Source: Escherichia coli
GTDB taxonomy: Bacteria > Pseudomonadota > Gammaproteobacteria > Enterobacterales > Enterobacteriaceae
Strand: one strand, 5' to 3'
Length of the DNA: 64,000 bases
Assembly (NCBI GenBank): GCA_025544715.1
Contig: GCA_025544715.1_4109.2
Position 1 is the stretch's first letter, and the number at the start of each line of letters is the position of its first letter. Both the position numbers and the translations under genes were made by a program. The notes below the pieces were generated by a model. It saw only the letters and a program-made list of their open reading frames with translations. It was not told the origin of the DNA and searched no databases. Shown here piece by piece: positions 6,464 through 41,884 of this stretch.

Positions 6464-7003
6464 TTAACGTTCATCATCATGAATCTCACGATGACAATTA
6501 GCACAAACCATAATACATTTATCTAGTTCTATTTTGATTTTTTCAAAAGAACGAGTTGAACCTTCTTGACTAATTGAAAAATCTTTCTGTGAAGGGTCAA
6601 TATGGTGAAATTCTAATGCCGCAATGCATTTATTATAACCACACTTTTCGCAGCAACCACCTTTGTATTCAACAGCTAATATTTTTAATTTTCTACGTCT
6701 ATCCGAAACACGTTGACTGTCACATTTTGAGCATTTCCATTTACCTTGTGAATTTAAATCATAATTCTTATTGTGTATTTCACAAAATCTCATTTCATTC
6801 GTTGACTTTGGTCGTTTAACACCATGTGATTCAATAATGTTATTGATTCTTGATCTATTACACTTATATTCTTTGGCTAAACCGTAAATTGGCATACCAT
6901 TTAAATACTTCTGAATTATTTCATTCTCTGGTAATTTAGAACTTTTCGCCTTTATTGCTTCGGCTATTTTGTTGCGTGTTTCTTCTGATTGTTTTCGTCC
7001 CAT
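6464..7003 (-). mobile_element. HNH homing endonuclease
   Basis: N-terminal EETRNKIAEAIK (NUMOD3-like), helix-turn-helix-like segment, Cys pairs, C-terminal EFHHID...CANCHREIH HNH motif; sits next to a tRNA cluster. Confidence 0.7.
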
Positions 7004-7069
7004 GAACCTTAGACCTCATAATATCCATTATGATATTATTTATTGTTCCAAGGTTCATAGTTAATTTGC

Positions 7070-7152
7070 TGGTAGTACTGGAGTCGAACCAGTCTTGTCA
7101 TTTCTGACACGGATTAACAGTCCGTTGCATAAGGCCGATATGCTAACTACCA
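7070..7152 (-). tRNA. type II tRNA (long variable arm), anticodon read as GTT
   Basis: 7-bp acceptor TGGTAGT/ACTACCA, D-stem GCAT/ATGC, anticodon stem ACGGA/TCCGT with loop CTGTTAA, variable hairpin GTCAGAAATGAC, T-arm ACTGG-TTCGACT-CCAGT; tRNA-Tyr-like body with an Asn anticodon. Confidence 0.55.
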
Positions 7153-7164
7153 TTTGTTTTAAAT

Positions 7165-7244
<80 letters not shown>

Positions 7245-7247
7245 GTA

Positions 7248-7741
<494 letters not shown>

Positions 7742-8103
7742 ATCACCAACTTTAATTAAAAAAATGGATGGTGACGCGTTTAAACGCCGCTGTTAATTCA
7801 GCTTTATAACCACCCGTTTTAACTTACCTTTCGGCTACCTTGACGTGGGGCGTACAGGCTACTAAAAGCAACTTCTGTAAACATATTTCCACGCCTTACC
7901 ATTTTAAATAAAAGTCCATCCGGTTTTCCAGTTTGGTGAAGGACTGTCACCTCTAGTTTCAACCTGCTAGTCAAGTAATAATTGCCTATCGTCCAATTAT
8001 CAAACCCGTCTAGGTTAACATTCACCACTTCCTAGAGTACCAGAGATCTTGTTCTGGATAGCATCGACGTAACTTACACCATATACGTCTGATTGTGGAA
8101 TTC

Positions 8104-8128
8104 ATTATATCAGTACTGAACTATTTAG

Positions 8129-8132
<4 letters not shown>
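8104..8132 (-). promoter_or_regulatory. early-type sigma70 promoter (TTGACT-17-TATAAT)
   Basis: Same architecture and spacer as 7345-7373 (TTGACTaaatagttcagtactgaTATAAT). Confidence 0.6.
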
Positions 8133-8541
<409 letters not shown>

Positions 8542-8554
8542 GCTTTTTTTTTAA

Positions 8555-8715
<161 letters not shown>

Positions 8716-8719
<4 letters not shown>

Positions 8720-8876
8720 ATTCGTACCAGTAGTTCAATTAAGTACATTTCATATGCTGGATCGTTGATAAGTTTATCATACAGATGTGGCTCTGAAATG
8801 AATTCCCAATGATACTCTAACCACTTACCAAAACCTGCATATCTAAAATTAATGTCATTCATCCATTCTTCATGTG

Positions 8877-8880
<4 letters not shown>
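8716..8880 (-). CDS. MTHEEW-family small protein (54 aa)
   Basis: Hand-translated MTHEEWMNDINFRYAGFGKW...; ATGA stop/start overlap on both sides. Confidence 0.55.
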
Positions 8881-9140
<260 letters not shown>

Positions 9141-9145
9141 TATTT

Positions 9146-9273
<128 letters not shown>

Positions 9274-9696: not shown

Positions 9697-10032
<336 letters not shown>

Positions 10033-40471: not shown

Positions 40472-41884
40472 TCAATTGTCTGATTTAGGAGTAAAATCAA
40501 TCTTTCTTAGTTCTTTAAGTTCAGATTTATAAATGTCCCAAATTAGGTCATGATTAGATAATAGTTCATTATACTTATCCATCAAATCAAGATTATCTTG
40601 AATATCTTGTAGTACTGATTGATAATTATCTTGTGTCCAGCGATATGATGGGAAGTTTACAATGCTTTGAATATTCTCGTCAGTTGCTTCAATTTCTGCA
40701 TTTAATGATTTAACAAATTCCACCATTTCTGCACGGTTTGCAAACCCTTTCACCTTAGCAATCATATCATTATCAAAGCATTCCTTGATTAGAATTTTGT
40801 ATCGAACCTCAGCGGCACAATCATCAAGTTTCTTTTCATAACGCTTGATGTAATACTTGAAACGAAAATCAACGAAGTCTTTAATCAAATCCATTGTTGT
40901 ATCGTAAACTTTTACTTTACCATTTTCACCAAGAACCGTTAAATGTTGAGTCATTTTTTTGTTAATACCAAAATACTCAATAACATCCATTTCTGACCAT
41001 TTAGCTGATGTACCACGAGGAAGTTTAATGGTGATATCAATTATATCAGTACTGTCATTGTCATAGTCACGAATCTCACCATCATCACTCATTTTAATGA
41101 GTTTTTCGATGAATTTCTCAATACTATAATTAGGTGGTAAACCTGTCACCTTAACCGTACTTGCATCGATTACTTCAGCTTTACCATAAAACTCATACTT
41201 ATTTTCATCCAGTTTTGTTACTACATCACTTGCCCCACATGATACATAATATGGTGTCATTTCTTTTAGTGGTTTTTTATCAATAGCACGAATACAATTA
41301 TCAATAATATCTTCAATTTTATGTGGTAGAATTGTACTCTTATACCCTACTGACATACTATCATTACCAAATAATGACAGTGGGATAATAGGTAAAAAGT
41401 GAACAGGTTCAAATGTGGTCCCGTCATAGTTCTCTTTCATTGGGATAATGTCAGCATCACGTAAAACGAGCATTTCAGTACTCTTATTCTTTTTAACATA
41501 AGTGTAACGAGCAGATGCTGGGGTACTGTTTACTTGTGTACCAAAACCACCACGTTTTCCAATAAGAGGATAGTTGTTGGCTACTGGAGATGCTAGATTC
41601 TGAAGTGTTCCAGATGCTGACGTGTCCCCATGAAGATAGATACCATCACTAATCATTTTTCCAGCACATGATACTGTTTTAATTTCCCCACTAATTTTAG
41701 ATAATGTGAAGATTGCTTTACGTTGTGAACTCTTTAGACCATCAATTCCAGGAATAGCACGGTCTAGTGTATACATCGAATATTCTAGTGATGTTGTATT
41801 CACATAATCAGAACTGTTATAATCTAGTAGAGTTAGTGTTTGGTTATCGATATTATGATTTTCTGTTTTTTTACTTTTAGCCAT
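40472..41884 (-). CDS. 52: DNA topoisomerase II medium subunit (T4 gp52-like, GyrA N-terminal homologue)
   Basis: YSMYTLDRAIPGIDGLKSSQRKAIF parallels the T4 gp52 / GyrA active-site region; 470 aa. Confidence 0.8.
   Translation of the reverse strand: MAKSKKTENHNIDNQTLTLLDYNSSDYVNTTSLEYSMYTLDRAIPGIDGLKSSQRKAIFTLSKISGEIKTVSCAGKMISDGIYLHGDTSASGTLQNLASPVANNYPLIGKRGGFGTQVNSTPASARYTYVKKNKSTEMLVLRDADIIPMKENYDGTTFEPVHFLPIIPLSLFGNDSMSVGYKSTILPHKIEDIIDNCIRAIDKKPLKEMTPYYVSCGASDVVTKLDENKYEFYGKAEVIDASTVKVTGLPPNYSIEKFIEKLIKMSDDGEIRDYDNDSTDIIDITIKLPRGTSAKWSEMDVIEYFGINKKMTQHLTVLGENGKVKVYDTTMDLIKDFVDFRFKYYIKRYEKKLDDCAAEVRYKILIKECFDNDMIAKVKGFANRAEMVEFVKSLNAEIEATDENIQSIVNFPSYRWTQDNYQSVLQDIQDNLDLMDKYNELLSNHDLIWDIYKSELKELRKIDFTPKSDN

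Follow-up and report, generated by a model that had tools for sequence, protein, structure and literature searches.

Stable RNAs whose function is unknown have been recognized in the tRNA regions of phage genomes since the early work on T4 and T5. The T4 and T5 RNAs are small to mid-sized, lie among the phage tRNA genes and are presumably released by the tRNA-processing enzymes (PMC3014915; GenBank annotations); those of T5 are listed in its record as RNAI, RNAIII, RNAIV, RNA1, RNA2, RNA2H, RNA3 and RNAX. The large ROOL and GOLLD RNAs are found in phages and prophages, often near tRNA islands; they are rich in pseudoknots and have neither a known protein partner nor a known function (PMC12286853). 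In the cholera phage ICP1, a vibriophage that has no tRNAs, the gap between genes gp139 and gp140 gives rise to an ~800-nt non-coding RNA that RNA-seq shows to be the most abundant phage transcript (PMC7567579). A Northern blot confirms this RNA, which is reported to be conserved in all 67 ICP1 isolates (bioRxiv 10.1101/2022.04.08.487710) but has been assigned no function (PMC9040626). The motifs in a 2023 catalogue, which lists about 10,000 candidate viral RNAs, are at most 151 nt long (PMC10690425).

The locus described here is a small minus-strand RNA operon in a jumbo coliphage of the Asteriusvirus type (121Q/PBECO4-like). Within the 64,000-nucleotide stretch of DNA that was analysed (the window), it forms a unit of ~350 nt in a tRNA region, between two small hypothetical ORFs that have no Pfam match and with tRNA genes on the same strand to either side (7068–7338 and 9064–9234), and its minus-strand order is promoter (8132–8104), module A (8102–7908), module B (~7900–7816) and a terminator-like element (7815–7758). 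It very probably holds two genuine structured non-coding RNA genes, one of the module A and one of the module B kind, and encodes no protein. The initial annotation had proposed one promoter-driven structured small RNA; a fold is indeed kept by compensatory changes, but it belongs to two separable modules plus a terminator-like element and not to a single RNA. The raised GC content that it reported is confirmed, with values of 0.38–0.41 in 200-nt intervals across 7700–8099 compared with 0.28–0.31 in the flanking ORFs and ~0.33 in the whole window.

The promoter that had been placed at 8104–8132 is present on the minus strand, and is of the sigma-70 type (TTGACT-17-TATAAT, 11 of 12 consensus matches) with the TG of an extended -10 element 5' of the -10 hexamer. 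The window contains its 29-bp sequence twice; the second, identical copy, where none would be expected by chance, lies at 7373–7345, directly 5' of the genes for tRNA-Ser, tRNA-Met and tRNA-Asn. The -10 hexamer in the window ends one base 5' of AAUUCCAC, and transcription starting at the usual seventh base would cut away most of the 5' strand of helix P1 (below), so the 5' end of the RNA in the window is uncertain; in the metagenomic contig L017 the corresponding spacing fits exactly. From this promoter, and from the behavior of the ICP1 relative discussed below, the RNAs of the window would be expected to be expressed.

Module A (7908–8102, minus strand) is a 195-nt structured RNA of eight helices with two pseudoknots, which is recognized by covariance models R1 (218 bits) and R2 (213 bits) and supported by homologues and covariation. 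All of its elements are on the minus strand, where RNA position p lies at coordinate 8103-p of the window. P1 is itself pseudoknot 1, in which 8098–8095 pair with 8028–8025 (plus an AUU/AAU pairing) so that it reaches into the loop of P4; it is followed by P2 (8089–8066), P3 (8057–8040), P4 (8036–8009), a CGGG junction (8008–8005), P5 with its invariant loop GACGAUA (8001–7977), P6 (7976–7962), pseudoknot 2 (7970–7967 with 7956–7953), P7 (7951–7935), P8 (7931–7920) and an invariant AUGGA (7919–7915). About 35–55 of the nucleotides are invariant, depending on the alignment, and many of these are in junctions and loops; the invariant unpaired motifs are CGGG, GACGAUA, UUGAC, AAAC, CCU and AUGGA.

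The comparative alignment that had been suggested as a way of telling compensatory from codon-position change shows compensatory change. Across 53 pairs in 11 helices and 14 homologues, 90.1% of the cells are paired, compared with 25–43% when the partners are slid; both sides have changed in 35 of the 53 pairs, and none of 500 shuffles reached the observed value of any measure. P4 and pseudoknot 2 are 100% paired, with compensatory changes, even though they were absent from the model that made the alignment. G-U is the commonest pair at several positions and would become an A-C mismatch on the opposite strand, which identifies the minus strand as the RNA strand. Single-sequence folding is weak and not decisive (z-scores of -1.0 for module A, -1.6 for module B and -1.4 for the whole region), and the minimum free energy fold disagrees with the covariation-supported fold because of the pseudoknots. 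The signal that exceeds chance is thus conservation and covariation across unrelated phages, not single-sequence folding.

These observations bear directly on the possibility that the conservation is a coding constraint and that the region encodes a 69-aa protein. The GTG-started ORF of that length is present as first described (7819–8028, minus strand), and in some related phages the depositors annotated the stretch as a "hypothetical protein". However, the doubt that the initial annotation expressed about it is borne out: most of the 14 homologues have stops or frameshifts, with in-frame stops in PM2, Pm5461, SdyM006, RaK2 and L018, a frame broken after two codons in PM2, Pm5461 and SdyM006, and stops or loss of frame in L017, the Aeromonas phages 65/avDM6, L009, L022 and L088. 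An open frame maintained by synonymous-site changes is therefore not what the homologues display, and the substitutions are compensatory in helices rather than concentrated at third-codon positions. The ORF covers the 3' portion of module A and the greater part of module B, two modules that are found separately elsewhere and that have a promoter between them in RaK2; it has no match in Pfam, and no good ribosome-binding site was seen in the initial annotation. We therefore reject a coding gene, a reading that is close to refuted, and regard the ORF as an accidental open frame.

Module B is ~85 nt long and combines a three-tier hairpin with a motif that contains a GAAA-loop hairpin. Its core hairpin, GGCGUGG ... 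UACAG [GUUGCU-UUU-AGUAGC] CUGUA ... CCACGUC (7842–7895, minus strand; RNAalifold and model R3), has 20 pairs in alignment A7, of which four show compensatory changes (RNAalifold), and the evidence for the module comes from seven sequences in about four lineages. Model R3 scores 105 bits on RaK2, 100 bits on L017 and 73 bits on Kuravirus, all three of which are part of its training alignment. The 3' motif, which we call B2, is AAGGUA-GCC-GAAA-GGU-AAGUUAAAAC (7816–7841, minus strand), and it includes the GAAA-loop hairpin noted in the initial annotation, GCC-GAAA-GGU, which lies on the minus strand at 7835–7826.

The two modules are portable, separable RNA cassettes, which are found together in Asteriusvirus, RaK2-type phages and L017. 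Module A occurs without B in EJP2 and module B without A in JNE01; module B has its own promoter in RaK2, where it lies between the two modules, and in L017, where each module has a separate promoter, and in Kuravirus module B opens a larger unannotated RNA region that an endonuclease gene adjoins.

The 3' element of the unit (7758–7815, minus strand) is a terminator-like three-way junction followed by a U run, and 5 of its 15 pairs show compensatory changes among six copies. Its outer stem, GGGUGGU/ACCAUCC, surrounds the hairpins GCUG..CAGC and GGCG..CGUC and is followed by AUUUUUUU. The 12-bp palindrome GCGTTTAAACGC, reported at about 7786–7797, does exist as a single copy, but ten bases away at 7776–7787, where it forms the top of the second inner hairpin. 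As in Rho-independent terminators, the unit closes with a GC-containing stem that leads directly into a U run, and the element also lies 3' of other RNA genes in RaK2-type genomes; it differs from them in being a conserved three-way junction and not a single hairpin, and in that one RaK2 copy overlaps the -35 and -10 elements of the next promoter. It was not listed by a simple terminator scan because its stem is branched.

A terminator-like end in a segment that lies between a promoter and an ORF is also the layout of an attenuator, and the region could in principle be a cis-acting leader (attenuator or riboswitch) for the downstream 123-aa ORF that starts at 7741. We consider this extremely unlikely, since elsewhere module A precedes a tRNA gene or another promoter, or in vibriophages lies within long ORF-less gaps, and is followed by no related ORF, and since the terminator-like element also stands after other RNA genes in RaK2-type genomes. 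In addition, G17-type phages have cleanly deleted modules A and B and kept the 123-aa ORF behind the same promoter.

Module A is present in about eleven phage lineages, which include jumbo, T4-like, T5-like, phi92-like and Aeromonas phages, and the vibriophage copies are more distant. The hosts of phages with its core are E. coli, Klebsiella, Proteus, Shigella, Morganella and Aeromonas, to which the host of ICP1 is added. RaK2-type phages share the complete A+B block at ~81% identity, and module A, over query positions 2–188 only, is 91% identical to the copy in Bragavirus (T4-like) and 85% identical to that in Novosibvirus (T5-like); it thus moves between unrelated phages at 85–91% identity. 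In T4-like, T5-like, phi92-like and Aeromonas phages its slot is a gap of ~190–280 nt between tRNA genes; the RaK2 copy also lies in a tRNA region, and the homologous stretches are unannotated in the relatives. All carriers of module A are virulent phages of gamma-proteobacteria, and no protein gene accompanies it. Neither 5,426 E. coli genomes nor PLSDB gave a blastn match that would point to a host or plasmid origin. Loose DNA patterns run against IMG/VR gave 120 loci each, mostly by chance, of which L088 alone was retained after screening with nhmmer and the covariance model; marine and metagenome-assembled genome matches (L014, L015, L019, L020, L023 and L024, and also L064/L130) were rejected as chance matches.

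The natural deletions in sister phages show that the A and B RNAs are not essential, and tolerance of such deletions together with very high identity between unrelated phages is what would be seen if the cassette were a selfish passenger, spread by the homing endonucleases of phage tRNA regions without benefit to the phage. Homing-endonuclease-like genes do adjoin the RNA clusters, namely a NUMOD3/HNH-type ORF at 6464–7003 in the window, a segD-like gene in SdyM006 and the endonuclease gene of Kuravirus. Endonuclease-driven spread would account for the mobility but not for the fold: compensatory changes in eleven helices across phages of Enterobacterales, Aeromonas and Vibrio indicate long-term selection on the RNA structure, and the ICP1 RNA is reported to have been kept in all 67 isolates (bioRxiv 10.1101/2022.04.08.487710). 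A purely selfish element thus appears very unlikely.

An Rfam scan, proposed in the initial annotation, was run with Rfam 15 on the window and eight homologous loci, and at the gathering thresholds only tRNAs matched; lowering the threshold to E-values up to 10 for 7600–8250 gave no match, and up to 1 for the vibriophage gaps gave nothing relevant. The initial annotation had also drawn an analogy with the stable RNAs of T4-like tRNA regions, which holds in kind. Like T4 rnaC and rnaD (the species 1 and 2 RNAs), the window unit lies in a phage tRNA cluster on the same strand as the tRNAs. Its homologues usually lie between tRNA genes, and in Bragavirus and Novosibvirus module A fills a slot like those of the T4 and T5 RNAs. 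Nevertheless, no homology to rnaC/rnaD was detected: models R1 and R2 found no match in the T4 tRNA region (L025), and inspection found no similarity there. Models R2 and R3, run with filters off on T5 24000–46000 (which covers the stable RNAs including RNAX), gave best E-values of 0.34–0.55, and BLAST from the window gave no Tequintavirus match. The 3' end of T4 rnaC is a tRNA-like T-arm, and RNA1 and RNA2 are described as tRNA-like in the T5 record, whereas module A has no tRNA-like arm. Several features noticed by eye were not conserved across the family and were set aside: GGA motifs of the CsrA type, the sequence AGAGGUGA as a mimic of a Shine-Dalgarno element, pairing of GUUUG with CAAAC over a long range, a resemblance of GACGGGAUUUG to tmRNA, and a group-I-like P3/P7 topology.

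Module A combines its two pseudoknots with numerous invariant nucleotides that are unpaired, a pattern typical of ribozymes and riboswitch aptamers, and it sits where transcripts need cutting. It might therefore be catalytic or bind a ligand, for instance as a self-cleaving or processing ribozyme inside polycistronic tRNA transcripts, or as an aptamer. We think this improbable, given that no known Rfam ribozyme or riboswitch is resembled even at E-values up to 10, that RNase P and RNase E already cover the processing of tRNA clusters, that a cis-cleaving ribozyme needs no very high abundance of the kind seen in ICP1, and that ICP1 has no tRNAs to process (PMC7567579). About equally improbable, in our estimate, is an RNA-only assembly in which module A would be a small functional relative of the multimeric ROOL/GOLLD cages. 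The two share a phage tRNA-island habitat, "ornate" pseudoknots and the lack of a partner protein gene (PMC12286853 / bioRxiv 10.1101/2024.12.08.627333), the same comparison has been drawn by the ICP1 authors (PMC7567579), and several paired segments of module A are palindromic (CUAG) and could pair between molecules. Yet the CUAG palindrome is not kept, being replaced by CUGG/CCAG in KP13-16 and L088 and by CUGUG/CACAG in ICP1; the ROOL and GOLLD Rfam models give no match; and module A, at 195 nt, is several times smaller than these RNAs of 500 to more than 800 nt, which are found mostly in other host groups. Their cages have been shown experimentally.

The closest described relative proved to be the ICP1 RNA, since module A is a domain found also in the long non-coding gaps of ICP1 and of the vibriophage henriette. 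Model R1 was built from 13 close sequences, with no vibriophage and without L088, and its distant matches were L088 with 23.8 bits (E 4e-5), ICP1 with 20.6 bits (E 3e-4) and henriette with 17.7 bits (E 1.5e-3), while R2 gave 27.3 bits (E 6e-5) on the ICP1 locus; the ICP1 and henriette scores, at 18–27 bits, are modest and the E-values of the models are rough. Identity between the window and ICP1 is too low for BLAST, so the link requires either a covariance model or the intermediate L088, from which BLAST reaches ICP1 with E 4e-3 against 2.3 Gb. The ICP1 domain lies in the gp139–gp140 gap (about 1909–2115 of locus L272; about 80750–80960 of HQ641347), where every helix can be redrawn in the same order with a different (covarying) sequence.

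The domain in the ICP1 gap, which encodes the long non-coding RNA (Barth et al. 2020, PMC7567579; Boyd et al. 2021, PMC9040626), shares with module A the order P1 to P7, both pseudoknots and the invariant motifs CGGG, GACGAUAUG, AAAC, the CCU loop and AUGGA. The ICP1 gap also carries the B2 motif of module B, with 18 of 19 positions matching; the B2 matches in the vibriophage gaps, at 2532–2563 of L272 in ICP1 and at 1123–1173 of L273 in henriette, have E-values of only ~0.009 and ~0.013. Like the window unit, the ICP1 RNA is non-coding and absent from Rfam, and it is highly expressed. It is unlike the unit in being a single ~800-nt transcript, encoded upstream of the lysis genes by a phage that has no tRNAs, whereas the window unit is ~350 nt long, belongs to a tRNA region and is divided into cassettes that other phages carry singly. 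A role of the ICP1 relative as an origin of replication is unlikely, since the ICP1 origins map elsewhere (PMC9040626).

Because module A is a domain within the gap that produces the ICP1 RNA, the proposal made for that RNA, a base-pairing regulator or sponge for phage, satellite or host transcripts, has to be considered for module A too. Hi-GRIL-seq recovered chimeras of the ICP1 RNA with many ICP1 and PLE transcripts, and its authors suggested a sponge (bioRxiv 10.1101/2022.04.08.487710). The chimeras may, however, reflect abundance, and non-specific ligation was raised by the authors themselves. Moreover, the nucleotides conserved across unrelated phages and hosts are in a compact pseudoknotted core and not in an accessible seed, and common mRNA targets are improbable across jumbo, T4-like and T5-like phages and vibriophages. 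Base pairing with transcripts therefore seems to us an unlikely primary function of the core.

The most likely reading of module A, which we hold tentatively and at somewhat less than even confidence, is that it binds or sequesters a conserved, abundant component of the host, as a decoy or a scaffold. We favor it because module A moves at 85–91% identity without a partner protein, only among virulent gamma-proteobacterial phages, and is dispensable. The very strong host-type promoter, the same 29-mer that serves the adjacent tRNA genes, would transcribe module A, then module B and then the terminator-like element, and both RNAs would be made in large amounts. They would be freed by the tRNA-processing nucleases (RNase P, RNase E and 3' trimming) or, in the window phage, would instead be delimited by a start at module A and termination after module B. 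Each would act in trans through its folded core, with no coding and no control of neighboring genes.

A broader possibility, which we regard as rather doubtful, is that module A represents the functional core of a phage RNA class that is both new and widespread, a portable double-pseudoknot fold passed as a cassette among virulent gamma-proteobacterial phages. Its target would be conserved host machinery, such as the ribosome, an RNase or a defence directed against tRNAs, or it would itself be catalytic or self-assembling. If true, this would explain the function of the ICP1 RNA and that of a share of the stable RNAs of phage tRNA regions that have no known function. The ICP1 region and the phages of the hosts named above have in common a compact, covariation-supported core of ~190 nt. 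This core offers a minimal domain for mutagenesis, which can be carried out in tractable E. coli phages, and natural deletion variants are available for comparison. The model can also serve to annotate many phage genomes that now leave the stretch empty or miscall it a hypothetical protein, and the distribution of module A indicates that RNA genes travel between unrelated phages as cassettes, just as protein genes do.

The feature that the initial annotation proposed as a promoter-driven structured small RNA at 7745-8097 is real and was correctly sensed there, except that the single RNA it assumed is two modules. When 8103..7745 (minus strand) was used as a blastn query against 50,697 phage records, conservation was found to begin at the promoter end and to cease just before the start codon of the next ORF, and the conserved block divides into module A (query 1 to ~190; a 195-nt structured RNA at 8102-7908) and module B (query ~200 to 359; ~7900-7816, followed by a 3′ element at 7815-7758). 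The locus thus comprises two genes for structured RNAs under a promoter of tRNA type: module A represents a new structured RNA family, module B a second and smaller one, and the 3′ element is a putative terminator specific to the family. The Rfam scan that had been advised matched no family in the RNA region, and complete E. coli genomes and plasmids gave no match to it.

By blastn the window belongs with 121Q, PBECO4 and related jumbo coliphages (the Asteriusvirus group; 97–99% identity), and the RNA locus lies on the minus strand within a region rich in tRNA genes (minus strand: tRNA-Asn, tRNA-Met and tRNA-Ser at 7068-7338, tRNA-Arg and tRNA-Ser at 9064-9234, and tRNA-Gly at 9938-10010). The GC content is raised as had been noted, being 0.38–0.41 across 7700-8099 compared with 0.28–0.31 in the flanking ORFs and ~0.33 in the window. 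The promoter placed at 8104-8132 was found upstream of module A as TTGACT-17-TATAAT with a TG upstream of the -10 (8132..8104, minus strand), and it is real and strong. Exactly one further copy of its 29-bp sequence is present in the window (7373..7345, minus strand), where it serves tRNA-Ser/Met/Asn; six bases lie between that -10 and tRNA-Ser, whose mature 5′ end is base seven counted from the -10. This places the RNA region under a duplicate of a tRNA-gene promoter. A third promoter of similar sequence is at 8541-8514 (minus strand), and three tandem overlapping 54-aa ORFs that each start with MTHEEW (8555-8719, 8716-8880 and 8877-9041, minus strand) form a small paralogous gene array at 8555-9041 between two tRNA clusters; one of the three was searched against Pfam and had no match.

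The absence of a convincing ORF was borne out. The 69-aa GTG-start frame is as it had been described, but it is rejected as a protein gene: it begins within the 3′ strand of helix P1 of module A, crosses A and enters B, has no Pfam match, and contains stops or loses frame in homologues. Read in the same frame from the same alignment column, PM2, Pm5461 and SdyM006 give VV-stop, RaK2 and L018 reach a stop at codon 17, and in L017 (a metagenome contig), the Aeromonas phages, L009, L022 and L088 (a 259 kb IMG/VR contig) the frame is out of register or has stops.

Alignment of 13, then 14, homologues gives module A eight helices (P1–P8) and two pseudoknots, the first between the 5′ end AUUCCAC and the P4 hairpin loop and the second between CUAG of the P6 loop and a CUAG eleven bases downstream, and this pseudoknotted fold is conserved. 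Pairs were counted on the alignment made by the covariance model (53 pairs, 11 helices), in which 90.1% of cells are paired, compared with 25–43% after shifting all partners by one to three columns. The compensatory changes that a comparative alignment was meant to reveal are present, with 35 of the 53 pairs changing on both sides, and none of 500 shuffles reached the observed value for any of five measures. P4 (six pairs, 100% paired, compensatory changes in all six) and the P6-loop pseudoknot (100% paired) lie outside the model that made the alignment and are therefore not fitted. P1 is CCAC/GUGG in the window, CCUCA/UGAGG in Klebsiella phage KP13-16, AGCAC/GUGCU in Aeromonas phage 65, CUACA/UGUAG in L009 and ACUCAU/AUGAGU in L088, and pseudoknot 2 is CUAG/CUAG in the window, CUGG/CCAG in KP13-16 and L088, and CUGUG/CACAG in Vibrio phage ICP1. 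G-U is the commonest pair at several positions, which fits an RNA made from the minus strand and not from the opposite strand. Single-sequence folding did not recover the covariation-supported fold (z = -1.0), and thermodynamics alone would not settle module A as an RNA. Depending on which alignment is used, about 35–55 nucleotides do not vary, many of them in junctions and loops (CGGG, GACGAUA, UUGAC, AAAC, a CCU loop and AUGGA); that module A is a catalytic or ligand-binding RNA nevertheless seems improbable to us.

The -10 hexamer ends one base before AAUUCCAC in the window, and in L017 the promoter spacing puts the start at the first A of AAUUCCAC. A start at the usual seven bases past the window's -10 would fall within the 5′ strand of P1, so either transcription starts unusually near the -10, or this copy is without a full P1, or the 5′ end is processed from a longer transcript.

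The core of module B is a predicted three-tier hairpin (7895-7842, minus strand) with compensatory changes in 4 of its 20 predicted pairs among only seven sequences, for example GGCG.../...CGUC in the window versus GGUG.../...CAUC in L017. On its 3′ side lies AAGGUA-GCC-GAAA-GGU-AAGUUAAAAC, whose GAAA hairpin, already noticed in the sequence, is at 7835..7826. A three-way junction follows (7815-7766; whole element 7815-7758, minus strand), with an outer stem GGGUGGU/ACCAUCC, two inner hairpins and a seven-U run directly after it. The palindrome GCGTTTAAACGC reported at ~7786-7797 exists within the second inner hairpin, ten bases away at 7776-7787. Six copies of the junction, some of them placed after other RNA genes in genomes of RaK2 type, have compensatory changes in 5 of 15 pairs, and the element is best taken as a putative transcription terminator particular to this family. 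In RaK2 one copy (L004 2436-2499) overlaps the -35 and -10 of module A's promoter, with TTGACA within the first hairpin and TATTAT within the outer stem; it therefore doubles as that promoter, a composite terminator-promoter.

By blastn, module A is 91% identical in Bragavirus (T4-like Proteus and Morganella phages), 85% in Shigella phage SdyM006 and Novosibvirus (T5-like Proteus phages) and 71% in KP13-16 (Stephanstirmvirinae), and its core can still be made out in Aeromonas phage 65 and that phage's relatives. RaK2-type Klebsiella jumbo phages carry module B, of which some Kuravirus phages have the first 55 bases. EJP2 has only A and JNE01 only B; in RaK2 a promoter-bearing 45-nt insertion separates them, and the order in L017 is module A, another 165-nt RNA, tRNA-Arg and module B, with the same type of promoter before each. 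That unannotated RNA of L017 (JACCDR011713278, minus ~768-605) has its ends joined by a 23-bp closing stem, UUUAUCAACGGUGAGUAACAUUG / CAAUGUUACUCACCAUUGAUAAA. At the A/B junction, where true promoters stand in RaK2 and L017, the window has a weak promoter-like site (TGGAAA-18-TAAAAT, 9/12 matches, 7930-7901, minus strand), which could provide a separate start for module B; sites at this match level are no more frequent than in shuffled sequence.

Module A, unannotated in all these records, occupies the tRNA-Gly/tRNA-Asp gap in PM2 and SdyM006, is flanked by tRNA-Leu and tRNA-Ser in Proteus phage 1 and KP13-16 and by tRNA-Pro and tRNA-Thr in the Aeromonas phages, and lies immediately 3′ of tRNA-Leu in L088. 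It starts two or three A residues past the CCA of the upstream tRNA, and in PM2 ~ten A/U-rich bases separate its end from the next tRNA. The jumbo-phage contig L088 (3300031087_000527) also has at 1096-1169 an ARAGORN tRNA with anticodon CUA, labelled tRNA-Pyl, which may be an amber suppressor and a hint of stop-codon recoding. A 790-nt unannotated gap in Escherichia phage 1-6bf (Kuravirus; L008 2014-2804) is a mosaic of RNA-like modules that occur piecemeal in 168 records, from Gamaleyavirus, Klebsiella and other phages: a module-B-type hairpin comes first, then GACGAUAU...AAAC...AGAUGGA, reminiscent of module A, and at the 3′ end a tRNA-like T-arm and ACCUGUAACCA acceptor-like end, for which ARAGORN gives no call; part of such a gap is labelled tRNA-Undet in one record.

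With the distant member L088 as query, blastn gave matches in 84 records of Vibrio phage ICP1, at an unannotated, ORF-less gap of ~1 kb between gp140 and gp139. Covariance model R2 finds module A there (L272 1923-2115; 27.3 bits, E 6e-5 on the locus), and R1, trained only on enterobacterial, Aeromonas and L009 sequences, scores 20.6 bits on ICP1 (E 3e-4), 17.7 on vibriophage henriette 12B8 (E 1.5e-3) and 23.8 on L088 (E 4e-5). Every helix can be drawn in ICP1 in the same order with different sequence: P1 CUCGA/UCGAG, P2 CCUGA/UCAGG, P3 CUCAC/GUGAG, P4 CUACACA/UGUGUAG, P5 GCUACC/GGUAGU around GAAGACGAUAUGGAAU, P6 GUUG/CAAC and P7 UCUAG-CAAUCCU-CUAGA, with the 3′ motif AUGGAU. The GAAA-hairpin motif of module B also occurs in the ICP1 and henriette gaps (model R3, E ~0.01 each; 18 of 19 bases identical in ICP1), and by eye a B-core-like hairpin lies directly 3′ of the ICP1 A domain. 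These individually weak points suggest that A and B are one functional set, one long RNA in vibriophages and short cassettes elsewhere. Henriette 12B8, 11895-B1, 1.084.O and 1.193.O (L273–L276) each have an unannotated 0.9–1.4 kb gap sharing differing pieces with the ICP1 region; that of 1.193.O follows tRNA genes, and two of the four hold an extra unannotated tRNA by Rfam.

The ICP1 lncRNA, a highly expressed homologue, is expressed throughout infection with function unknown, and in related vibriophages an lncRNA upstream of the lysis genes is a conserved feature of highly divergent sequence (Boyd et al., PMC9040626). Barth et al. describe a non-coding RNA of ~800 nt from this gap as the most abundant transcript of ICP1, liken it to GOLLD and ROOL and report ICP1 to be without tRNAs (PMC7567579); for the present family we think an RNA-only assembly improbable. 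The lncRNA was confirmed by Northern blot, is present in 67/67 ICP1 isolates and forms many ligation chimeras with other transcripts, from which a sponge role was suggested (2022 preprint, 10.1101/2022.04.08.487710); for the RNA described here a base-pairing sponge is, in our estimate, unlikely.

In at least five Asteriusvirus genomes (G17, phAPEC6, Sharanji and others) the promoter remains with the first 37 nt of A, after which the sequence passes straight to a point shortly before the next ORF; the remainder of A and the whole of B are cleanly deleted (seen at L271 1501-1552 in Escherichia phage G17, MK327931), and the RNAs are thus dispensable in these phages. Identity of 85–91% across jumbo, T4-like and T5-like phages, limited to the RNA, indicates recent horizontal transfer; the RNA is portable without a partner gene and limited to virulent phages of gamma-proteobacteria. 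Homing-endonuclease-like genes adjoin the RNA clusters in the window (6464-7003), SdyM006 and Kuravirus and are a plausible vehicle for its spread. The window's 179-aa ORF (minus strand), with a weak N-terminal NUMOD3 motif and an HNH-like C-terminus (CxxC...CANCHxxIH), is probably a homing endonuclease adjoining the tRNA cluster, which fits cassette exchange in the region. Copies embedded among tRNAs would be released by RNase P, RNase E and 3′ trimming, and the RNA would act in trans via its folded core; the mechanism we rank first, if tentatively, is that it binds or sequesters a conserved, abundant host factor.

The likeness to T4-type stable RNAs drawn in the initial annotation holds for kind and habitat and fails for homology. 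No match came from the tRNA region of T4, which includes rnaC and rnaD, and neither R2 nor R3 matched the stable-RNA region of T5, in whose tRNA region eight "stable RNAs with unknown functions" are annotated, including the 719-nt RNAX near the endolysin gene; with no match in Rfam, T4 or T5, this is thus a separate family. RNAX (L277, NC_005859, 16849-17567; record coordinates 40848-41566) has its own promoter, a tRNA-Arg after it and the endolysin gene ~700 bases away, a layout resembling that of the ICP1 lncRNA, which lies upstream of lysis genes, although R2 and R3 found no homology. The RNA family falls within the phage stable RNAs, a category known but unexplained, and connects them with the lncRNA of ICP1.
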